Below are positions 871 through 61,952 of a stretch of 64,000 nucleotides of DNA, in pieces (the first letter of the stretch is position 1; each line of letters opens with the position of its first letter). The notes below the pieces were generated by a model. The model had not been told where the DNA came from, made no database searches, and was given only the letters and a program-made list of their open reading frames with translations. Origin of the DNA: an uncultured Verrucomicrobiae bacterium (GTDB taxonomy: Bacteria; Verrucomicrobiota; Verrucomicrobiia; Limisphaerales; UBA11358); the NCBI GenBank assembly GCA_963762585.1, contig CAVXLF010000023.1:85035-149034 (forward strand), in the 5' to 3' direction. The position numbers and the translations under genes were made by a program.

Positions 871-3223
<2,353 letters not shown>

Positions 3224-3229
3224 GGCCAA

Positions 3230-3802
3230 TTATCTTTTGCGACAGGTTCTGACGCGATACCGCGGCGCGGTTTCCCGGACGTGAAAACCGATCTCGCGGC
3301 GGTTTTCCGGCTTCGGCGGTTCAACCAACTGCCGGATGGCCTCAAATAAACTGGTGATGGCTTCGTCATGGCCGCTGACGCGGGTTTCCAATTCCTTCAA
3401 TTTCTGTGCGAGTTCCTTGTTGGCCGTGATGTGTTCACGCATCCAGACAAACGCACGTACGACCCGGACACTGGCTTCGACGGCCACCGGGCTGTTCAAA
3501 ACACTGGCGAGCATCAACGCGCCATGTTCAGTGAAGGCCGTCGGCAAATGACGATGTCCGCCGTGCAGACTTGAGGTCGCAAATTGCGACCTCAAGTTTG
3601 CAAGCTCTTGATGGGCAAGCTCAAACGCAAAGTCATTGGGGAATCTTTCGGCATTCCGGCGGAATTGTTCTTTTAACCGTTTCGTGGTCACGCCATAAAC
3701 CCGCGCCAGATCAAAATCCAACATAACCCGCTGCCCGCGAATCAGATAAATCATATCTTCGATCCGCAGTACCTGAGCCGCGTTGTTTTTGTAACTGACC
3801 AT
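3230..3802 (-). CDS. ORF6N (KilA-N-like) domain DNA-binding protein inserted between atpA and atpG
   Basis: 190 aa; IRGQRVMLDFDLARVYGVTTKRLKEQFRRNAERFPNDFAF...LRSQFATSS...LPTAFTEHGALMLASVLNSP..A...RAF is the ORF6N family pattern; coiled-coil tail. Visibly more AT-rich than flanks. Confidence 0.75.
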   Translation of the reverse strand: MVSYKNNAAQVLRIEDMIYLIRGQRVMLDFDLARVYGVTTKRLKEQFRRNAERFPNDFAFELAHQELANLRSQFATSSLHGGHRHLPTAFTEHGALMLASVLNSPVAVEASVRVVRAFVWMREHITANKELAQKLKELETRVSGHDEAITSLFEAIRQLVEPPKPENRREIGFHVRETAPRYRVRTCRKR

Positions 3803-5745: not shown

Positions 5746-5761
5746 TCCAATTCTTTTGAGA

Positions 5762-5811
5762 TAGGGACGCCGCGCCGCGGCGTCCGGTCAGCGCCGCGCG
5801 CTGACCCTACC
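5762..5811. repeat. 50-nt double-hairpin GC-rich REP-like element (TAGGG...CCCTACC) filling the atpF-atpH intercistronic gap
   Basis: TAGGGACGCCGCGCCGCGGCGTCCGGTCAGCGCCGCGCGCTGACCCTACC: two 9-bp stems with 3-nt loops; 45/50 identical to 21897-21946. Confidence 0.85.
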
Positions 5812-21663: not shown

Positions 21664-22449
21664 TTACCCGCGACAATTTTTCATCAAGCGCAGCATCTCC
21701 TTGACCGCGGTTTTGAGGCCAGTCATGACCGCCCGGCTGACGATGCTGTGGCCGATGTTCAATTCCACCAGGTGCGGCACGCGATGGAGTAGCGGCAGGT
21801 TTTCGTAATTCAATCCGTGTCCCGCATTCACCCGCAGGCCGAGCGCGTGCGCCTGCTCCGCGGCGGCGATGAGGCGGTCGAGTTCTGATAAATCGGTAGG
21901 GACGGCGCGCTGCGCCGTCCGGTCATCGCCGCGCGATGACCCTACCTTTTTATAAAATTCCTCCGCAAACGCACCGGTGTGCAATTCGACAAACTGGCTT
22001 CCGACCCGCGCGCTGGCCTCAATCTGCTCTTTATCCGGTGCAATGAACAAACTCACCTCGATGCCGGCATCGTTCATTTTCTGGCGTGTTTTGGTCAGAG
22101 CTTTTTCACTCGCGGCCACGTCCAGTCCGCCCTCGGTGGTCACTTCCGACCGGCGTTCGGGCACGAGGCAGATGATATCCGGTTTTAATTTCAGCGCGAT
22201 GGCGATGATGTCCGGCAGGTTGGCCATTTCGAGGTTGAGCCGGGTTTTGACGGTTTTCCGCAATTTCCAGATATCGCGGTCCTGGATGTGCCGGCGGTCT
22301 TCGCGCAGGTGCGCGGTGATGCCGTGCGCGCCGGCGGCCTCGCAAATCCGCGCGGCCTCGACCGGGTCCGGTTCACCAAATCCACGGTTGCGATAACGCG
22401 CTTCGCGGATGGTCGCGACGTGGTCAATATTGACACCCAGTTTCAACAT
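21664..22449 (-). CDS. pdxJ: Pyridoxine 5'-phosphate synthase (carries in-frame repeat insertion)
   Basis: ATG 22449: [60 protein letters not shown]. Confidence 0.92.
21897..21946. repeat. 50-nt double-hairpin REP-like element inside pdxJ coding sequence
   Basis: TAGGGACGGCGCGCTGCGCCGTCCGGTCATCGCCGCGCGATGACCCTACC; translated on the minus strand as [18 protein letters not shown]. Confidence 0.85.
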
Positions 22450-22558
22450 GTAATCAACCTGCCAGCCTTGCGTCTGGCACAACAGAATATTTTCAAGAGG
22501 TGCATTTCGTGCCAAAAGAGTTCCCCTTTGGCAAATTCAATTACATTCGAATTGCCCG

Positions 22559-23053: not shown

Positions 23054-25510
23054 GTGAAACGTCCGCTGGTCGGTGTCGTTTCGTGCTATGTCATCGGATT
23101 GCTGCTGGCCGGAATTTATCAACCGGCACCCGCCGCGCTGTTTGCCTGCGCTTTGGTCGTCCTCGCTTCCGCCCTGGTGCTCAAGAAATTCCGTCCGTGG
23201 CTGATCTGGCCGCTCATCGCGCTGATCGGCTGGACGAATCTCGTCAGCCGCACCACCGTCGTTTCACCGGACGACCTGCGCGCTTTGCTGGGCAACGACG
23301 ACGCCATCGTGTCCGTGCGTGGCATTTTGCAGGAGACGCCACACGTCAAAATCGTCGAACGCGATGACCGGGCAACCGAACATTCCCTTGCCCGGGTCCG
23401 GGTGGCGGAATTGCGCCGGGGCGAAAACTGGCAGCCGGCAGCCGGCGAAATCATGGTCGCCACACCGGGCACGCTTTCCGATCGTTTCTTTGCCGGGCAA
23501 CCCGTGGAAATCACCGGCGTCATCGCCCGGCCGCCGGCGCCGCTGGCGGAAGGCCTTTTTGATTATCGTGATTACCTCCAGACGCGCGGAATTTATTACC
23601 AGCTCAAAACCGGTTCGACCAACGACTGGCAGCTCAGGGTGCCGTCCCTGGCGAATCCGCCCTTGACCGACCGGTTTTTGAACTGGGCGAGGAAAACACT
23701 CGCGTTGGGACTGCCGGTGGAGGATGAGCCGCTGCATCTGCTTTGGGCCATGACCCTCGGCTGGCGGACGGCGTTCACCGGCGATATCAGCGAGCCTTTC
23801 CTGCGTGCCGGCACGATGCATCTGTTTGCCATCGATGGACTGCGCATTGCGTTGATTGCCGCGATGCTTGTGGCGTTGCTCCGGGTGATACAGGTCTCGC
23901 GCGCCTGGTGCGGTGCCGTCGCCATTCCGGTCATCTGGTTTTACACCGCCGCCACCGGTTGGGAATCTTCCGCCCTCCGGGCCTCGGTGATGATGACCGT
24001 CATCCTCGGCGGCTGGGCTTTGAAACGGCCGGGTGACACCCTCAATTCGCTCGCCGCCGCCGCCTTCATCATCCTGCTGTGGGAACCGCGCCAGCTTTTT
24101 GAAACCAGTTTTCAACTTTCCTTTTTTGTCGTGCTCGTCATCGCGCTGATGTTGCCGGCGCTGAACCAGATCATTGACCGGCTGTTGCGGCACGACCCGT
24201 TGCTGCCGGAGGAACTGCTGCCGCGCTGGCGGCGGGCGCTCACCGCGACCCTGCGGATGCTCGGACGCTATTGCGCGCTTTCGTTTGCGGCGTGGGCCGG
24301 TTCCATCCCGCTCGCGGCAAAATTTTTTCATTTGTTCAGCCCGGTTTCGACGCCCGCCAACCTCATCGCCGTGCCGCTGGGCACACTCGCGCTGATGAGC
24401 AATTTTGGCGCGCTCATTTCTGGCACGTGGCTGCCGTGGGTGACGGAATTATTCAATCACAGCGCGTGGTTCTTCATGGTCGCGATGACATGGGTCAGTG
24501 AAGTTGCCACCAAAATTCCGGGCGCCTTCTTTTACGTCCCGGAACCGTCGTGGTTGGAAATCGGACTTTATTACGCCGTGCTGGTCGGCATTTTGAGCGG
24601 CTGGCTCTGGGCGCCCAAACGAAGAATCTGGAGCGCGGCGGCATTGATTTTGATCGCGGCCGGCGGCATCTGGCACTGGCAAACCTGGCGCACCGAAACC
24701 AAACTGACCGTTCTGCCGTTGAACGGCGGGCAGGCAGTCTGGGTGGACGCCGCCGGCCGGAAAAACGACTGGCTGGTGGATTGCGGCAATGACCGCGCCG
24801 TCGAGTTCACGCTCAAACCATTTCTCCGCGGGCAGGGCGTGAATTGGATTCCGCGTTTGATTTTGACCCACGGCGATTTGCGGAACGTGGGCGGGGCGGA
24901 GTCACTGGATGAACTCTTTGGCATCGGCGAAGTGGACACCAGTTCCGTTCCTTTCCGCTCAGCGGTGTATCGCCAGATCGTCGCGGAATTTGAACAACCA
25001 CCGGCGCGGCACAAAATCATCAATCGCGGCGGTACCACCGGCTGCTGGCGGGTGTTGCACCCCGAGGCCGCAAATAATTTTCCGCGCGCGGATGACAATG
25101 CGCTGGTGTTGCTAGGCAATTATTCCGGCACACGCGTGCTGCTGCTGTCGGACCTGGGGCGCGCCGGCCAGGACGCCTTGCTGGCGCGCACCAATGATTT
25201 GCGGGCGGACATAGTCGTTGCCGGCCTGCCGAATGCCGGCGAACCGCTTTGTGACGAACTGCTGGCGGCGATTGAACCGAAAGTCATTGTGGTGGCGGAT
25301 TCGGAGTTTCCCGCCACCCGCCGGGCGGGTTTTGAATTGAAGGCACGCCTGGCCGGGCAAAAAGCGCCGGTCATCTTTACGCGCACCGCGGGCGCGGTGA
25401 CCATCCGGGCGCGACCGGATTATTGGGAGCTGCGGACCATGGACGGGCAGAAATTCGAGTTCAAGGGTGGGGCGGATGTCGCGTCCGTTTCTATCACGAA
25501 GAAAGATTGA
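23054..25510 (+). CDS. comEC: ComEC/Rec2 DNA internalisation protein (DUF4131 + competence + metallo-beta-lactamase)
   Basis: 818 aa, GTG start; polytopic core (GTMHLFAIDGLRIA..), C-terminal LILTHGDLRNVGG beta-lactamase-fold block. Confidence 0.85.
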   Translation: MKRPLVGVVSCYVIGLLLAGIYQPAPAALFACALVVLASALVLKKFRPWLIWPLIALIGWTNLVSRTTVVSPDDLRALLGNDDAIVSVRGILQETPHVKIVERDDRATEHSLARVRVAELRRGENWQPAAGEIMVATPGTLSDRFFAGQPVEITGVIARPPAPLAEGLFDYRDYLQTRGIYYQLKTGSTNDWQLRVPSLANPPLTDRFLNWARKTLALGLPVEDEPLHLLWAMTLGWRTAFTGDISEPFLRAGTMHLFAIDGLRIALIAAMLVALLRVIQVSRAWCGAVAIPVIWFYTAATGWESSALRASVMMTVILGGWALKRPGDTLNSLAAAAFIILLWEPRQLFETSFQLSFFVVLVIALMLPALNQIIDRLLRHDPLLPEELLPRWRRALTATLRMLGRYCALSFAAWAGSIPLAAKFFHLFSPVSTPANLIAVPLGTLALMSNFGALISGTWLPWVTELFNHSAWFFMVAMTWVSEVATKIPGAFFYVPEPSWLEIGLYYAVLVGILSGWLWAPKRRIWSAAALILIAAGGIWHWQTWRTETKLTVLPLNGGQAVWVDAAGRKNDWLVDCGNDRAVEFTLKPFLRGQGVNWIPRLILTHGDLRNVGGAESLDELFGIGEVDTSSVPFRSAVYRQIVAEFEQPPARHKIINRGGTTGCWRVLHPEAANNFPRADDNALVLLGNYSGTRVLLLSDLGRAGQDALLARTNDLRADIVVAGLPNAGEPLCDELLAAIEPKVIVVADSEFPATRRAGFELKARLAGQKAPVIFTRTAGAVTIRARPDYWELRTMDGQKFEFKGGADVASVSITKKD

Positions 25511-25533
25511 GACGGGCAGGAAGCCTGTCCTAC
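25511..25533. repeat. GTAGG-headed small hairpin (head on minus strand) supplying the folB stop codon
   Basis: Minus strand GTAGGACAGGCTTCCTGCCCGTC; the TAG of the head is at 25530-25532, which is the folB stop. Confidence 0.6.
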
Positions 25534-25886
25534 GGCTTCCGGACTTCAACTGAAACGTGCCGCGCTTCCGGAACCGGGAATTTTTTGACCTCGACCGTGA
25601 CGCTTTGCGGTTTGAATTCAGCCAGAATGAGGTTGGCAATATCGGCGGCAAGTTTCTCGATGAGTTGCCACTCACGCCCATCGCCGAATTTCAACAACCG
25701 TTGTGAAACGGCGAAATAATCAATCGTGTCACGGATATTATCGCTCTCCTCCGCCGCCGAAAAATCAAAATCCATCTCCACCGTCAGCAACAAACGCTGC
25801 GGCTTGACGCGTTCCGCCGCCGGCACGCCGACGCGATGGAAAACTTCGAGGTCCACGATGGTGATTTTTGGCAATGAATTTTTCAT
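25530..25886 (-). CDS. folB: Dihydroneopterin aldolase
   Basis: 118 aa; GVPAAER...Q.L...V....D......SD.I.DTIDY...... pattern and size of FolB. Confidence 0.85.
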   Translation of the reverse strand: MKNSLPKITIVDLEVFHRVGVPAAERVKPQRLLLTVEMDFDFSAAEESDNIRDTIDYFAVSQRLLKFGDGREWQLIEKLAADIANLILAEFKPQSVTVEVKKFPVPEARHVSVEVRKP

Positions 25887-28980: not shown

Positions 28981-30003
28981 ATGATTGCTGTTGCTGACCA
29001 TTCCGCACCGGTCGTGGACGACCTGCAAGTCCGCCCGGCCATGGCCCCTTCGCGGTTCGAGCCGCTGGCCCGGGAGATTTTCGCGCTCAAAAAGCAGCTC
29101 AACGCCGTCATTCTCGCCCACAATTATCAGGTGCCGGAAATCCAGGACGTGGCGGATTACGTCGGCGACTCGCTCGGCCTGTCGCAACAGGCGGCCAAAA
29201 CGAGCGCGGATGTGATTGTGTTCTGCGGCGTGCATTTCATGGCTGAGACGGCGAAGATTTTGAACCCGAACAAGATTGTCGTGCTACCGGACAAGAACGC
29301 GGGCTGTTCGCTCGAGGAAAGTTGTCCCGCGGACAAACTGGCCGCGCTCCAGGCGACGAATCCCAATTTCTGGACCATCGCCTACATCAATTGCAGCGCG
29401 GCGGTAAAGGCCCTGACCGACGTGATCTGCACCAGCGGCAACGCGGTGAAAATCGTTCAGGCCGCGCCCAGGGACAAGGACATCCTGTTTGTGCCGGACG
29501 AAAACCTGGGTGCGTGGGTGATGGAACAGACCGGCCGCCCGATGACGTTGTGGCAGGGCAATTGTTACGCGCACGTCGAGTTCCGGCGCGAACAGGTGCT
29601 GAAATTGCGCGCGAAATATCCCGACGCCAAGGTTGTGGTGCATCCGGAAAGTTTGCGCGAAGTGCGTGATCTGGCCGACGCGGTTTGCTCGACGGAGCGA
29701 ATGATTTCCTACTGCAAATCGGACCCGGCCAAACGATTCGTCGTGGTGACGGAATCGGGCATAATCCACCGGATGCAGAAGGAATGTCCGGGCAAGGAAT
29801 TTCTATGCGCGCCGGTGTTCGACGTGATGCGGCTGCCGTCGGATCATTGCCGTTGCAGTGAGTGCAAGTACATGAAGCTGAACACGCTGGAAAAGGTGCG
29901 CGACTGCATGAAACAGCTCGCGCCGCGCGTTGAATTACCGGCGGAAATCTTGAAGCGCGCCCGGTTGCCCATTGAGCGGATGCTGGAAATTTCAGCGCGG
30001 TAG
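28981..30003 (+). CDS. nadA: Quinolinate synthase
   Basis: 340 aa; ILAHNYQVPEIQDVAD.VGDS, FCGVHFMAETAKIL, AYINCSA, VVHPES, TESGI; start could be the later Met at 29041. Confidence 0.93.
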   Translation: MIAVADHSAPVVDDLQVRPAMAPSRFEPLAREIFALKKQLNAVILAHNYQVPEIQDVADYVGDSLGLSQQAAKTSADVIVFCGVHFMAETAKILNPNKIVVLPDKNAGCSLEESCPADKLAALQATNPNFWTIAYINCSAAVKALTDVICTSGNAVKIVQAAPRDKDILFVPDENLGAWVMEQTGRPMTLWQGNCYAHVEFRREQVLKLRAKYPDAKVVVHPESLREVRDLADAVCSTERMISYCKSDPAKRFVVVTESGIIHRMQKECPGKEFLCAPVFDVMRLPSDHCRCSECKYMKLNTLEKVRDCMKQLAPRVELPAEILKRARLPIERMLEISAR

Positions 30004-30023
30004 GGCGGCGCTGCCGCGCCGCC
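30000..30023. repeat. GTAGGG-headed hairpin supplying the nadA stop codon
   Basis: GTAGGGCGGCGCTGCCGCGCCGCC: GGCGGCGC-TGCC-GCGCCGCC stem; TAG at 30001-30003 is the nadA stop. Confidence 0.7.
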
Positions 30024-30105
30024 GAGGCCGGGCAGCAGCCTGGCCCTGCCAAAAGTTGGAGACAGGCGCGACGCCGGTTCTACAGCGTAGGTTTGGCCCG
30101 CTGAC

Positions 30106-37083: not shown

Positions 37084-37129
37084 GCGCTCAATGTAGTCTC
37101 ATGTGACTACATGCGTCAACTGAATTCTT

Positions 37130-39947: not shown

Positions 39948-42224
39948 GTGAGTCTTCACCGCGACCAACTTTTCGCGCCACTGAAACAATTCTTCGGCTT
40001 CAGTTCCTTCCGTCCGTTGCAGGAGGAAATCATTCGCGACGCGCTCGCGGGCAAGGACGTTTTCGCCGTGCTGCCCACCGGCGGCGGCAAATCGCTCTGC
40101 TTCCAGCTTCCCGCGCTCGTGCAACCCGGACTCACCGTTGTCGTCTCGCCGCTCATCGCGCTGATGAAGGACCAGGTGGACGCGCTACAGGCGGCGGGCG
40201 TGGCGGCGACATTTTTGAATTCATCGCTCGCCGCCGGCGAATCGCGTCCGCGCCTGCGCGGCTTGCACCAGGGCGAGTTCCGGTTGCTCTACGTCGCGCC
40301 GGAGCGGTTAATGTTGTCCGGTTTTCTTGACGACCTGAAGAAATGGAACGTGAACCTGTTCGCGATTGACGAGGCGCATTGCATCAGCGAGTGGGGACAC
40401 GATTTCCGCCCGGAATACCGGCAATTGCAGACGATGCGCGGAATTTTTCCAACCGTGCCGATGATGGCGCTCACGGCCACGGCCACCGAACGCGTGCGCG
40501 GCGACATTGTCCGGCAGCTGCATCTGAAGGATCCCGCGTGCTACGTCGCCAGTTTCAACCGCCCGAACCTGACTTACCGCGTCGCGGCGAAGTCAGGCGC
40601 TTATGACCAGATTCTTTCGTACGTGCAGGCGCGGCCGAACGAAAGCGGCATCATTTACGTGCAGGCGCGCAAAACGGCGGACAGCCTGGCGGCCAAACTT
40701 TCCGCCGACGGCGTGAAGGCGCTGCCGTATCACGCGGGCATGACCCCCGGTGACCGGACGAAAAGCCAGGAGGCATTTCTTCGCGACGAGGCGCGCGTGA
40801 TTTGCGCGACCATCGCCTTTGGCATGGGCATCAACAAGCCGAACGTGCGTTTCGTGATTCACTACGACCTGCCGAAGAACATCGAAGGCTATTATCAGGA
40901 AACGGGCCGCGCCGGCCGTGACGGTCTGCCCGGCGAATGTCTGCTGTTGTTCAGCCCCGGCGACCGGGTCAAGCAGATGCGGTTCATTGACGAAAAACCA
41001 AGTCCGCAGGAGCGCGAAATCGCCCGCGCCCAACTGGAACAGATGATTCACTACGCCGAGATCGCCACCTGCCGCCGTGAATTTCTGCTGGGATATTTCG
41101 GGGAGAAATTTAATCCAAATGAGGTTGTCGGACAAGGTGGGGCGCGTCACTCCGTGCGCGCCGACTTTGCAACATTGGACAACGGCGCGCACGGAGTGAC
41201 GCGCCCGACCGAACCCGTGAATTGTGCCGGCTGCGACAACTGCCTCTCGCCGCGCGCGACCTGGGACGGCACGCTGGCGGCGCAAAAATTTCTTTCGTGT
41301 GTCTATCGCATCCGTGAGAAAAGCGGTTTCGGCGTCGGCATTCAGCACGTGGTCGAGGTGCTCTGCGGTGCGGAAACGGAAAAAGTCCGCAAGTTCGGCC
41401 ACCACACACTTTCGACCTACAACATTGGCGACGGACATGCGCGCGCCGAGTGGAGCGCGATTGGACGTGAACTGGTGCGGCTCGGTTTGCTGTTTCAAAA
41501 CGCGGAGAAGTTCAACATCGTCGAGCTGACCGACGCCGGTCACACGGCGCTGAAATCGCGGCAGAAAATCACGTTGACCAAACCGGTCGCTCCGACCGAA
41601 CCGGCGAAGCATCGCGCCGGCGAAATTGCCTGTGACGAGGCGTTGTTCGAGAAATTGCGCGCGCTGCGGAAACAGCTTGCCGACGCGCGCGCCGTGCCGC
41701 CTTACATTATTTTCTCCGACGTGTCGCTGCGGCAGATGGCGCGGTTTTATCCCGCGAACGAAAAGGATTTTTCGCGCATCAGCGGCGTGGGTGAAAGGAA
41801 GCTGCGCGAATTCGGCGAAGCTTTCCTGGGTGAAATTGCGGCGCATGTGCAGACGAACCCGCGCCAGGTTTTTGCGGATGATTTCCCGGCGGATGGAATG
41901 CCGTCCGCGCCGGTGCCGCGCCGGTCACGGCTGACCGACAGCGTGCGCGAGACGCTGCATTTTTTCCAGCAAGGCCGGGCGGTTTCCGAAATTGCAAAAA
42001 TTCGCGGCTTCAAAGACAGCACGATTTACAGTCATCTTGAAGAAGCCATGCTCGCGGGCGAATCGGTTGATGTGCATTCATTGGTTTCAGCCGAAGCCAG
42101 GCGCGACATCGCCGCAGCCTTCGTCCGGCACGGTTTCGGCAACCTCACCGGCGTGGTCGAATCGCTCGGCGGGAAATACGGTTACGGCGAATGCCGCGTC
42201 GTCCGCGCCGCGTTGCAAAGGTAG
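39948..42224 (+). CDS. recQ: ATP-dependent DNA helicase RecQ (helicase-RQC-HRDC plus C-terminal HTH-like tail)
   Basis: [91 protein letters not shown], CxxCDNC, HRDC ([15 protein letters not shown]). No in-frame ATG; GTG 39948 proposed. The track ORF start 39540 overlaps gyrB. Confidence 0.92.
41136..41210. mobile_element. REPIN (inverted REP doublet, 28+19+28 nt) inserted in frame in recQ
   Basis: GGTGGGGCGCGTCACTCCGTGCGCGCCG (41136-41163) and CGGCGCGCACGGAGTGACGCGCCCGACC (41183-41210); each is 27/28 identical to the arms flanking the RAYT gene at 59.3-59.9 kb. Confidence 0.85.
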
Positions 42225-42268
42225 GGACGCCGCGCTGCGGCGTCACCGCCCGCGAAATAGCGGGCGGA
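42221..42268. repeat. GTAGGG-headed hairpin pair supplying the recQ stop codon
   Basis: GTAGGGACGCCGC-GCT-GCGGCGTC then CCGCCCGC-GAAATA-GCGGGCGG; TAG at 42222-42224 is the recQ stop. Confidence 0.75.
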
Positions 42269-42378
42269 ACGTGTGTCGTACACGATTTATTGCGCCGCTG
42301 CGGCGCCGCGCTCCATCCCTGCCGCATTTGAATCCAAATCAACTCGCTTTTTGGAGCGGTGAACCTTATTTTCACCAA

Positions 42379-45234
<2,856 letters not shown>

Positions 45235-45342
45235 ACCGCAGAGACGCAGAGGTGGGGTTGGCGCGCTGCGCCGACCGCGCCGCGTGCAGCGGCGCAAGCG
45301 AGATGGATTGTGACTGAGTGACGCGAGAGGAGCGTCCGGTTC

Positions 45343-45387
45343 CGGCCCTGAACGGGCCGGAGGTCATCGCAGCGCGATGACCCTACC
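45343..45387. repeat. Hairpin pair ending in CCCTACC tail
   Basis: CCGGCCC-TGAAC-GGGCCGG then GGTCATCGC-AGC-GCGATGACCCTACC; the second stem is identical to hairpin 2 of the pdxJ element. Confidence 0.7.
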
Positions 45388-45447
45388 AAGGCGTATTCGG
45401 GTCACTTTGTGTCACAAGTTCGGGACTCGTGCAACTCGTCCGTCCGA

Positions 45448-45477
45448 ATCTGTGTTCATCTGTGTGAATCTGTGGCC
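45448..45477. repeat. Tandem 10-mer ATCTGTGNNN x3
   Basis: ATCTGTGTTC ATCTGTGTGA ATCTGTGGCC, just downstream of the 1106-aa gene stop. Confidence 0.65.
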
Positions 45478-54753: not shown

Positions 54754-54759
54754 ATTGCT

Positions 54760-54783
54760 GTAGCGGCGGTCTGCGACCGCCGC
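54760..54783. repeat. GTAG-headed hairpin after eno
   Basis: GTAGCGGCGGTC-TGC-GACCGCCGC. Confidence 0.6.
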
Positions 54784-54821
54784 AAAATGGCACACTCACC
54801 GAGGGCCGTTGTAGAATTCAG

Positions 54822-59293: not shown

Positions 59294-59930
59294 GGTAGGG
59301 CGCGTCACTCCGTGCGCGCCGTCGTTGTTCGTGCGGCGGGCAGGGGACTGCCCGCCCTACCCAAACGTGGGTGACGGTCGGTTATTCGGGCGATAGACCC
59401 ATGCCCAGTCTTCCGCGCGCTCGCACAATCCTTTACGGACAGGATTCATCAGAATGTAGCTGGTCTTCTCCGCCAATTCATTATGATCGCGCAGACGGTG
59501 ATCGAAGAAATCGCGTTGCCAATGCACATCGTGTTTTAAAGCCACATATTTCTTCCAATTTTTCATCACCGTTTCAATTCCTGGTTCGCGCGGGAACGCG
59601 AGGAGGGCATGCAAATGATCCGGCATGAGCAGGCACAGCCGACAATGCCAGATAAGTTTCTCATGGTTGTATTTCATCGCCGCCAACACAGCATCGCCGG
59701 TTCCGGCCTGGCATAAGTGATTTCTTCCCGGCGGCATGCATTTGATCGTGATGAAGAACCAACTTCCCTCAGCCACCCACTGCGGAATTGTGTGCGGCAG
59801 CTTTTTGCGGACAGGCAAGTCCATTAAGTGAAACGCAACCGAGGCCAACCGTGAAAGTTGGGCTCCGTAAGTCGTCTATGCGCCTTTAGTATTTTCGAAC
59901 AACGGCGCGCACGGAGTGACGCGCCCTACC
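59294..59930 (-). mobile_element. RAYT unit: tyrosine transposase gene bracketed by perfect 28-bp inverted REPs
   Basis: GGTAGGGCGCGTCACTCCGTGCGCGCCG at 59294-59321 and its exact reverse complement at 59903-59930. An additional GTAGGG-headed hairpin (59335-59362, minus orientation) supplies the RAYT stop. Confidence 0.85.
59357..59824 (-). CDS. REP-associated tyrosine transposase (IS200/IS605 Y1 superfamily)
   Basis: GSWFFITIKC, LLMPDHLHALL (HUH), WQRDFFDHRLRD, YILMNPVRKGL (catalytic Tyr), collinear with E. coli-type RAYT. ATG 59824 preferred over TTG 59848. Confidence 0.85.
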   Translation of the reverse strand: MDLPVRKKLPHTIPQWVAEGSWFFITIKCMPPGRNHLCQAGTGDAVLAAMKYNHEKLIWHCRLCLLMPDHLHALLAFPREPGIETVMKNWKKYVALKHDVHWQRDFFDHRLRDHNELAEKTSYILMNPVRKGLCERAEDWAWVYRPNNRPSPTFG

Positions 59931-59943
59931 TGCACAAATCACA

Positions 59944-61287
59944 TCACGTTTCGATGCCGTAGGCCTTGATTTTATTGTAGAGCGTCTGGCGGCCGATGCC
60001 GAGGCGTTTGGCGGCTTCGAGCTTGTTGCCTTCGGTTTCCTTGAGCATCTGGATGATGGCATTGCGCTCGACGCCTTCCAGGAGGGTGAAATTTGTGTCG
60101 TTCCCGTCGGTCGGGCCCGCCTTGACGTTGGTGATGGAAAGGTCGGAGCCCTCCACTTCGTTGCCTTCGCTTAGCAGCACGGCGCGTTGGACCTCGTTTT
60201 GCAACTGGCGCACATTGCCCGGCCAGTCGAACGCGGTAAACCGCTCGGCGGCTTCCGCGCTGAAGCCGCGAATGTCGCGATTGGCCTGCGCCGAGAACCG
60301 TTTCAAAAAGGCGTTGGCCAGCGGCATGATGTCATCGCGCCGTTCGCGCAGCGGCGGCAAATGAATGGAAATGGCGCTGACGCGGTAATACAAATCTTCG
60401 CGCAGTTTGCCGTCCCGGATGGCTTCCTCGGGCACGCGGTTGGTCGCGGCAACGATCCGGCAGTTGGTTTTGTAGCTGGTCTTGCCGCCCACGGGCCGGA
60501 CTTCCTGGTCCTGCAACACGCGCAGCAGCTTGCTCTGCGTGTCGATGGGCATCTCGGAAATTTCATCGAGAAACAGTGTGCCGCCCTCGGCCTGGCGGAA
60601 AAGGCCTTCGCGGTCGGAATGCGCCCCGGTGAACGCGCCCTTGACCGAGCCGAACAGTTCGCTCTCGATCAATTCCCGCGGAAGCGCGGCGCAATTGATT
60701 TTGATGATCCGGCTTTTGTTGCGCGTGCTGCGCGCGTGAATCAGGTCGGCGATGACCTCCTTGCCCGAGCCGCTTTCGCCGGTGATGAGGATGGTGACGT
60801 CGCTCGGGGCGATGCGTTCGGCGGTGCGGACCACTTCGCGCATGAGTGAGCTGCGATAAATGGGCGAGGCCACGCCGCTCATGGTTTCGAGGGCGCGGCG
60901 CAGCGTGGTGTTTTCCTGGTTTTGCTCCTTGCGCTCCACGGCGCATTTCACGTCGGCGAGCAGTTTTTCGTTCTCGAACGGCTTCGACAAAAAGTTATAC
61001 GCACCGCGCCTTCCGGCCTCGACGGCCATCGTAATGGTTCCATGACCGGTGAGCACGATGACCTCCGTCTCGGGCCAGCGTTTTTTGACCTGGGGCAGGA
61101 GATCGAGACCGTCGGCGTCCGGCAATTTCACGTCGAGGAGCACGACATCCGGGGGGTCCTGGGGAAAACATTTTTGCAGGGCGGCTCCGCTGCTGGCCTG
61201 GGCCACGTCATAGTTGTCCTCCAGCACCGAGCGGAGCAGCTCCCGCACGTCGGCCTGGTCGTCCACGATGAGAACTTTCGATTTCAT
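59944..61287 (-). CDS. Sigma54-dependent response regulator (REC-AAA+-Fis HTH), NtrC family
   Basis: KVLIVDDQ...[12 protein letters not shown]; GESGSGKE Walker A; GAFTGA; FLDEI; C-terminal [21 protein letters not shown] overlap with the upstream gene. Confidence 0.9.
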
Positions 61288-61952
61288 GTTTTGGATTTTT
61301 TCACACACGCCCGGACAAACCGCGAAAAAATCGCCCGGTGTCCGGCGTGCCGTTGGGCCAGCCGTTCGGGGTGAAATTGCACGCTCAACAAAAACGGCAT
61401 TCGCTGCGGCGCATCTGATTTTAATTCCATTGCTTCCACAATTCCATCACGCGCTCGCGCCACGGCCACCAAGGGTTCCGCCGGTTGCAGGACGGCCTGA
61501 TGATGCGAGCTGTTAACGCTCAAAACCCGCTGGCGAGCGATACTGGCAAGCAGTGAACCGCTTGTCAACGACACTTCATGCACTAATTCATTTGCCTTGT
61601 CCAGACGCTGATGGTTGAGCGCGCCCGGCACCTGGCGCCGGATGTCGGCGATCAATCCGCCCCCGAACGCGATGTTCAATAATTGATGCCCGCGGCAGAT
61701 GGCCAGCAACGGCTTGCGCTGGCGTAACGTCTCGTCAATCAACATCAACTCGCGCAGGTCGCGTCCGCCGCTGTCCGGGGTCATGCTGACCGTTTTGCGG
61801 ACCGCCCGCGGCAGGTTTCGGGTGTAAAGATCGGGATTGATATCGTCGCCGCCGGTCAACAGCACGCCGTCCACGCGTCGCACCGTTTCCGCCAGCACCC
61901 GGCGGTCGGTCGTCGTCGGCACCGTCACCGGAATGCCGCCGGCCCGGAGCAC
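61284..61952 (-). CDS. Class-I glutamine amidotransferase / peptidase C26 (PuuD-like); N-terminus apparently disrupted by a frameshift
   Basis: GVLLTGGDDINP, LLAICRGHQLLNIAFGG (nucleophile Cys), SSHHQAV, VQFHPE. The track ORF begins at a GTG and lacks the first beta-strand, which is found in another frame at 62053-62021. Confidence 0.7.
   Translation of the reverse strand: MLRAGGIPVTVPTTTDRRVLAETVRRVDGVLLTGGDDINPDLYTRNLPRAVRKTVSMTPDSGGRDLRELMLIDETLRQRKPLLAICRGHQLLNIAFGGGLIADIRRQVPGALNHQRLDKANELVHEVSLTSGSLLASIARQRVLSVNSSHHQAVLQPAEPLVAVARARDGIVEAMELKSDAPQRMPFLLSVQFHPERLAQRHAGHRAIFSRFVRACVKKSKT

Follow-up and report, generated by a model that had tools for sequence, protein, structure and literature searches.

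GTAG-type REP heads provide the TAG stop codons of four genes in an uncultured Verrucomicrobiae bacterium

In a 64,000-nucleotide stretch of an uncultured Verrucomicrobiae bacterium (contig CAVXLF010000023.1, assembly GCA_963762585.1), hereafter the window, the genes recQ, nadA, folB and a gene for a REP-associated tyrosine transposase (RAYT) all end on the TAG that lies within the 5' head of a repetitive extragenic palindromic (REP) element. An initial annotation, made from the letters of the sequence, had already pointed out these four stops and had read them correctly; the observation is real and non-random. The explanation that we consider the best, and probably the right one, is that the repeats are GTAG-type REPs and inverted REP dimers (REP doublets forming hairpins, REPINs) of the resident RAYT, and that the TAG of their GGTAGGG head took over termination at dispensable gene tails. 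The supply of stops by REP heads has been known for GTAG REPs since 2013 (PMC3733652). What is added here are counts, a test of reading frame, and evidence from orthologs that the C-termini concerned are derived and slightly shortened.

Results

The window has a G+C content of ~60%, and proteins identical or nearly identical to those it encodes are found on many contigs from soil and peat metagenomes and in metagenome-assembled genomes (MAGs) labelled Verrucomicrobiota or Limisphaerales. Using a gene model based on codon statistics trained on long open reading frames (ORFs), we obtained 57 complete genes, with 26 TGA, 23 TAA and 8 TAG stops. The TAG group consists of atpF, folB, nadA, gyrB, recQ, a gene of 1106 aa, the RAYT gene and a weak 88-aa ORF, which means that the seven confident TAG genes of the initial annotation were all recovered, with the weak ORF in addition; Pfam confirms recQ, nadA, folB, atpF and gyrB. 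At four of the seven confident genes the stop is indeed a head TAG (Table 1). With 13 heads placed at random over the 128,000 strand positions, only ~0.006 such coincidences are expected. Furthermore, a 19-nt pattern describing the commonest REP stems matches the window six times when one mismatch is allowed, against an expectation of 0.01.

The anatomy is the same at all four genes, in that a GC-rich stem begins 2-3 nt past the TAG of the repeat head, and the elements carry stems of 8-9 bp with loops of 3-4 nt. The recQ gene ends in CAA AGG TAG (TAG at 42222-42224) followed by GGACGCCGCGCTGCGGCGTC, in which the arms GGACGCCGC and GCGGCGTC enclose the loop GCT; a second, unrelated hairpin follows at 42246-42267, and the RNA of this 3' region folds at -35 kcal/mol (z=-4.6). 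For nadA, GCG CGG TAG (30001-30003) is followed by GGCGGCGCTGCCGCGCCGCC, with the arms GGCGGCGC-TGCC-GCGCCGCC. Downstream of it an inverted REP with the degenerate head GTAGA (30061-30086) faces the 3' end of a convergent PHO4 gene, and is homologous to the distal REP at the nadA locus of a relative (L007). The RAYT gene ends in TTT GGG TAG (minus strand, 59359-59357) and continues with GGCGGGCAGTCCCCTGCCCGCC. Lastly, folB ends in AAG CCG TAG (minus strand, 25532-25530), after which GACAGGCTTCCTGCCCGTC forms an imperfect hairpin, GACAGGC-TTCC-TGCCCGTC with one mismatch, that takes up precisely the 19 nt before the TGA of comEC (25508-25510).

For the predicted RNA folds, energies lie between -13.4 (folB) and -40 kcal/mol, and z-scores between -2.1 and -4.6. 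The statement that each head is immediately followed by a GC hairpin needs some qualification: recQ, nadA and RAYT fold strongly, whereas at folB the hairpin has degenerated, and the RNA of this copy folds best into a different 7-bp stem that places the UAG in a loop. On direct reading of the sequence, no T-run follows the hairpin at any of the four captured stops, and the hairpins are therefore not intrinsic terminators. It had also been stated that the head always faces the gene. This is true, but only by construction, since the TAG can be read in that orientation alone.

Table 1. Genes with captured stops, REP elements and REP dimers in the window
Feature	Position (strand)	Description
recQ	39948..42224 (+)	~758 aa; longest ORF start 39540; last codon AGG plus stop from REP head
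REP at recQ end	42220..42267 (+)	head GGTAGGG 42220-42226; hairpin 1 at 42226-42244, 8 bp, loop GCT
nadA	28981..30003 (+)	340 aa, ends ...EISAR-TAG
REP cluster past nadA	29999..30086 (+)	head GGTAGGG 29999-30005; hairpins 30004-30023 and 30026-30045
folB	25530..25886 (-)	118 aa, ends ...VRKP-TAG; Pfam FolB 112/113
REP between convergent folB and comEC	25511..25534 (-)	head CGTAGGA carrying the folB stop
Decayed partner REP, GTGGGGCGGATGTCGCGTCCGTTTC	25463..25487 (+), approximate	in 3' coding end of comEC; by-eye alignment with L214 and L217
RAYT gene	59357..59848 (-)	163 aa; HLH (HUH) motif, catalytic Tyr in ...TSYILMNPV
REP-b, RAYT stop	59335..59361 (-)	head GGTAGGG; 9-bp stem GGCGGGCAG/CTGCCCGCC, loop TCCC
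REP-a left of RAYT	59295..59320 (+)	GTAGGGCGCGTCACTCCGTGCGCGCC; head-out dimer with REP-b
REP-a right of RAYT	59904..59929 (-)	head 17 nt past TGA of sigma-54 activator gene (59944-61308)
REP dimer atpF/atpH	5761..5810	GGTAGGG (minus) begins 3 nt past atpF TAG; other head ATAGGG
REP dimer (REPIN) in pdxJ	21896..21945	stop-free reading frame; +16 residues
REP cluster	45252..45386	between convergent gcvP-like and 1106-aa genes; heads GTGGGG (degenerate) and GGTAGGG (45386, minus)
REP, GTAGC-head family	54759..54785 (+)	7 nt past enolase TAA, head toward gene

The elements have the features of GTAG-type REPs and REPINs: an unpaired GTAG at the foot of the hairpin, a short GC-rich palindrome, dispersed copies, and dimers with their heads pointing outward (5761-5810, 21896-21945 and 59295-59360). 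All of them begin with (G)GTAGG(G). Moreover, the putative transposase gene passes the NCBIfam model NF047646 (85.9 bits, cut-off 80; aligned to positions 5-145 of the 146 in the profile), while it scores 15.3 bits against the Pfam model Y1_Tnp, below the cut-off of 23. It lies between identical inverted 26-mers (GTAGGGCGCGTCACTCCGTGCGCGCC, starting at 59295 on the plus strand and at 59929 on the minus strand), and this position between inverted REPs is the textbook RAYT arrangement.

In order to compare C-termini, orthologs of nadA, recQ and folB were considered. For nadA, a scan of metagenomes for the locus returned about 10 close relatives among the matches listed, and ~120 close orthologs diverge exactly past ...ERMLEISA[RK], where the tail is either absent, AA, PA or TA, or PIENAG or PVENAG. 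Two REP-less relatives (L001 and L004) read ...AAA CCG ATT GAA AAT GCG GGA TAA (...AKPIENAG), and a third (L009), which is 95% identical to the window, reads ...AGA GCG GCC TAG (...ARAA), with 7 nt left to the convergent PHO4 gene; its stop, although of the TAG type, sits 6 nt further 3' than that of the window. In L007 the gene ends in TAA and the REP follows 2 nt on. For recQ, the window and two relatives of 88-89% identity (L211 and L212) have CAA AGG TAG and the same REP, whereas the REP-less L213 (87% identical) has CAG ATA AAA TGA followed by an unrelated spacer, so that ...QIK stands against the ...QR of the window. An inverted partner REP 3' of recQ (~42295-42320) is decayed in the window and intact in L211 and L212.

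At folB, most orthologs are one residue longer past the conserved ARHVSV, e.g. ...TKKL against ...RKP in the window. The window and two relatives (L214 and L217, 78-79% identical) have CCG TAG GACAGGC, which is the left arm of a REP dimer that spans the convergent folB and comEC genes; the right arm lies within the comEC end in a stop-free frame, and the TGA of comEC abuts the foot of the left arm. A single REPIN thus gives folB its stop and codes for the tail of comEC. In L214 and L217 the partner copy is still intact (GTAGGACAGTCGTCACGCCTGTCTC). It is the right arm and the spacer of this dimer that encode the TGA of comEC and the last ~15 residues before it (25463-25510). In another relative without the folB REPIN (L215, ~925-950), it is comEC whose stop TAG comes from a head of the GTAGC type (CCG TAG CAGCCGACG...), and folB ends in TTG TAG GAGCC...; the capture of stops by heads with GTAG seems to be pervasive in the clade.

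Overall, the genes run on for 1-6 more codons in REP-less orthologs, to a TAA, a TGA or a TAG unrelated to the head, and no native GGTAG was found at the site in the REP-less nadA and recQ orthologs compared. In the window the Pfam domains run to the last profile position or within one of it; those of recQ comprise DEAD, Helicase_C, RQC, HRDC and HTH_40, of which the last is matched over 89/89 positions and ends 5 aa before the stop, and the NadA domain is matched over 295/295 and ends 4 aa before the stop. This rules out any large C-terminal truncation and limits the loss to 1-6 residues. On neighbor-joining trees of ~119 orthologs each, at least 33 (nadA), 35 (recQ) and 27 (folB) changes of tail length are needed, parsimony places the longer tail at the root, and the nearest nadA relatives of the window (94-96% identical) all have longer tails. 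As judged from these sequence comparisons, the short C-termini of the window, with a last codon NGG or CCG that comes in part from the head, are derived. The initial annotation had proposed comparing C-terminal lengths with orthologs lacking the element, and the outcome for nadA, recQ and folB supports the replacement of native C-termini.

For a wider sample, species-representative genomes were scanned with the REP pattern, yielding at least 120 loci (L011-L130, 861 kb), nearly all of them from Verrucomicrobiota, Chthoniobacterales or Udaeobacter MAGs among the matches listed. These were processed with the same gene predictor and a finder for GTAG plus hairpin, which gave 326 heads; all counts in this and the following two paragraphs refer to the loci listed. 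The head consensus over 168 copies is GGTAGGG, where the G preceding GTAG is found in 96% and the T before it in 47%. Because of this consensus, a captured stop is preceded by an NGG codon (Arg, Gly or Trp), a rule that fits recQ (AGG), nadA (CGG) and RAYT (GGG). Upstream of the head no conserved motif was found in these copies, positions -14 to -3 being near background composition, and the G and T at -1 and -2 look like parts of the element itself. The conserved 4-5-nt target that IS200/IS605-type elements have at the left end is hence not seen here.

Defining d as the offset from the head TAG to the nearest same-strand stop, 24 heads have d = 0, meaning that the head TAG is the stop, and at 3 heads (d from -150 to -1) the ORF passes through the head. 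A frame-blind process would put one third of these heads in frame, against the 24/27 found (binomial p=3e-9), and for canonical GGTAGGG heads there are 14 stops versus 2 cases of read-through (p=1e-5). Downstream of stops, 37 heads fall at d 1 to 15 and 25 at d 16 to 50. Five heads lie at d = 4, every one as TAG|GTAGGG, and eight at d = 5, seven of which are stop|GGTAGGG. The empty offsets d = 3 and d = 6 had suggested an in-frame ratchet, by which genes would have lost a native stop lying 3 or 6 nt before the head; this idea is unsupported, as a GGTAGGG head does not allow d = 3, and heads do occur at d = 9 and d = 12.

Head TAGs make up 24 of the 165 TAG stops in the REP-bearing loci. Most heads are not near any stop; among the classifiable ones 195/268 are intergenic and 73/268 are called inside genes, and for 156 of the 209 canonical heads an inverted partner lies no more than 130 nt away. 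The orientation test that had been proposed was carried out on single REPs in tandem spacers, where there is no overall bias (19 versus 16). Where a single REP lies within 25 nt of a stop, however, it presents the head in 11 cases and the foot in none. Furthermore, genes with a non-overlapping head 5-20 nt past the stop end in TAG in 38% of cases (16/42), compared with 20% (112/548) of genes with no REP nearby (Fisher p=0.009). Several TAG genes with a nearby head show tandem arrangements of the type TAGG|GTAGGG or TAGGG|TAGGG, which could be what is left of older heads or could point to targeting.

Some further elements and neighboring features of the window deserve mention. The dimer in pdxJ (pyridoxine 5'-phosphate synthase, 21664-22515, minus strand) coincides exactly with a 16-residue insert relative to PdxJ of E. 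coli (1m5w), and is an intragenic REPIN in a housekeeping enzyme. At atpF the initial annotation placed a head 4 nt past the TAG, which applies to GTAGGG, while the full GGTAGGG begins at 3 nt. The 10-mer array that was said to follow the 1106-aa gene directly did not hold up, as it comprises just 2.9 copies and begins 17 nt past the stop; it is a tandem repeat of GAATCTGTGT at 45446-45474, between that stop and the REP cluster. Just past the TAG of gyrB lies an AT-rich palindrome of 8 bp (ATGTAGTC...GACTACAT, 37091-37112) that has a GTAG inside its stem and is not of the REP type. Within the ATP synthase operon, between atpA and atpG, lies an ORF of 190 aa (3230-3802, minus strand) with an ORF6N domain (Pfam PF10543, 1.6e-34) and a low G+C content at third codon positions (0.54); at 3564-3602 it has an inverted repeat whose perfect 17-bp arms enclose a loop of 3 nt. 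The ORF resembles a mobile gene that has become lodged in the operon.

Discussion

How would a mobile repeat come to own the stop codon of a housekeeping gene? We propose that a REP or a dimer lands in the last dispensable codons of a gene, or is fused to them by a later deletion, with its head toward the gene, dimers offering a head at both ends. Where the head TAG is in frame, the protein would end there, 1 to 6 residues shorter, on a codon NGG, or CCG in the CGTAGGA family. In the other two frames translation would run through the hairpin, and such insertions would be removed by selection, so that the frame bias would stem from selection and not from targeting. Since the head is conserved, a captured stop would then be stable and long inherited, and the same REP is indeed found at the orthologous recQ and folB sites. 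Going by work on E. coli, a likely consequence is that a ribosome terminating at such a stop would have to melt a hairpin 2-3 nt further on, with reduced translation or a protected mRNA 3' end as possible results.

Several aspects of this are in line with what is known of GTAG REPs. ORFs that flank such REPs often owe their TAG stop to a GTAG terminus, the distance from a convergent REP to each of its two ORFs is under 20 bp, and intragenic copies are most numerous in the verrucomicrobium Opitutus terrae (Di Nocera 2013, PMC3733652), while REPs at or right past the RAYT stop codon have been described as well (Nunvar 2010, PMC2817692). Like the GTAG REPs and REPINs of these and related studies (PMC2817692, PMC3733652, PMC3479197), those of the window have an unpaired GTAG 5' of a GC palindrome of 20-25 nt, occur as single copies and as head-out inverted dimers, lie mostly between tandem or convergent genes near 3' ends, and come with one RAYT gene between inverted REPs, one of which covers its stop. 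Unlike them, they have a longer head, GGTAGGG, or CGTAGGA in a second family; they are hosted by an uncultured lineage of Verrucomicrobiota from soil or peat metagenomes; and their RAYT, which passes NF047646, is too diverged for Pfam Y1_Tnp. Palindromic miniature inverted-repeat transposable elements (MITEs), such as the RPE of Rickettsia and the MITEs of Coxiella (PMC5896051), are similar in being small palindromes that are tolerated in frame or at gene ends and alter termini, and the pdxJ insert and the comEC tail are examples of such tolerance. Those, however, belong to other families, CGTC-tagged or bearing terminal inverted repeats, and have no fixed in-frame head stop.

Could the overlap of heads and stops instead reflect where the elements insert? 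The initial annotation offered two explanations, replacement of native C-termini and a preference for gene ends as targets, and it is the former that finds support, on a small scale. If the RAYT inserted its REPs and REPINs at or just 3' of stops or TAG-like sequence, be it through GTAG-guided recognition of CTA or CT on the complementary strand or through single-stranded DNA at gene ends, the overlap would be a product of the insertion mechanism and not of selection. This we regard as unlikely, even though the strong in-frame excess and the higher share of TAG in genes with a head shortly downstream would agree with it. A number of other observations speak for such targeting too and weigh against stop capture by selection as proposed above. 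Heads crowd the stops, with 13 at d = 4 and d = 5 taken together versus roughly 1-2 per position over d = 1-50, and this excess of heads abutting stops makes simple random insertion inadequate unless a deletion bias is added; single REPs close to stops, moreover, are without exception turned head first. At nadA, the window and L005 (GCA_050012035.1) have a common GCG CGG TAG GG junction with different hairpins, and L137 has GCG CGG TAG with no hairpin, from which a native GGTAG may have been the landing site at this gene. In L005, a Y1_Tnp/RAYT gene lies directly downstream of nadA (2500-3105). Selection against read-through would, in addition, need to be very efficient, and yet pdxJ tolerates 16 extra residues from an in-frame REPIN. 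It must also be taken into account that the polarity obtained from neighbor-joining trees and parsimony is rough, and that the gene calls of the wider sample come from a simple predictor of our own.

On the other hand, nothing is conserved upstream of the head beyond the G at -1 and the weak T at -2, single REPs in tandem spacers show no overall bias of orientation, and most heads have no stop nearby. The stops of REP-less orthologs, TAA, TGA or a TAG further 3' with no native GGTAG, rule out a native TAG as landing site for recQ and nadA, in the latter case with the partial reservation just given. The RAYT of E. coli, for its part, needs no more than a CT dinucleotide for cleavage (Messing 2012, PMC3479197). 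IS200/IS605 elements such as IS608 and ISDra2 resemble the present system in their HUH/Y1 fold, their single-stranded hairpin ends and a short guide-like sequence 5' of the foot, but they insert 3' of a defined target of 4-5 nt beside the left end, where the REPs have no conserved flank, and REPs carry no transposase of their own. That the spread of REPINs in this Verrucomicrobiota clade has a mechanistic link to gene 3' ends or stops, by way of a head-first, stop-proximal preference of insertion, is, in our estimation, distinctly improbable. If true, it would mean a systematic capture of termination in housekeeping genes, which would drive the fast turnover of C-terminal tails (27-35 changes over ~119 orthologs per gene) and raise TAG usage. 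We find it more doubtful still that the hairpins next to stops are kept for regulation, by protecting mRNA 3' ends or stalling ribosomes, with the TAG overlap being as close as a selected 3' element can be packed. In line with such a role, recQ and folB have each kept the same REP in lineages of 78-89% identity, heads are concentrated 0-20 nt from stops, and E. coli REPs no more than 15 nt from a stop are reported to cause ribosome stalling and reduced translation (Liang, Rudd & Deutscher 2015, as cited in PMC12306157). As far as that citing account goes, the four genes are comparable, their hairpins lying within those 15 nt and, at 2-3 nt, within the footprint of the terminating ribosome, with the difference that in E. 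coli the REP follows a separate native stop, whereas here the stop is the REP's own. However, the folB hairpin is decayed in the window with no compensatory changes in its stem, the partner REPs at recQ and comEC are decayed as well, and the missing T-runs exclude a role as intrinsic terminators. Finally, a genome of ~60% G+C has hairpins in abundance, and GC-rich sequence after a TAG might merely resemble a REP head; such coincidence is virtually inconceivable, being refuted by the pattern matches and overlaps in the window and by at least 24 recurrences in related genomes.

The main value of these findings lies in providing a well-documented example from an uncultured lineage of an observation whose core has been in the literature since 2013. 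For annotation, they imply that in REP-rich genomes a sizeable share of the TAG stops, together with the residue preceding them, is mobile repeat. Where the repeat owns the TAG and the last residue, close orthologs can therefore differ at the C-terminus because of the repeat and not through adaptation. For the biology of REPs, the in-frame bias and the asymmetry between head and foot near stops are measurable signatures, which could separate selection from insertion targeting in RAYT/REPIN systems.

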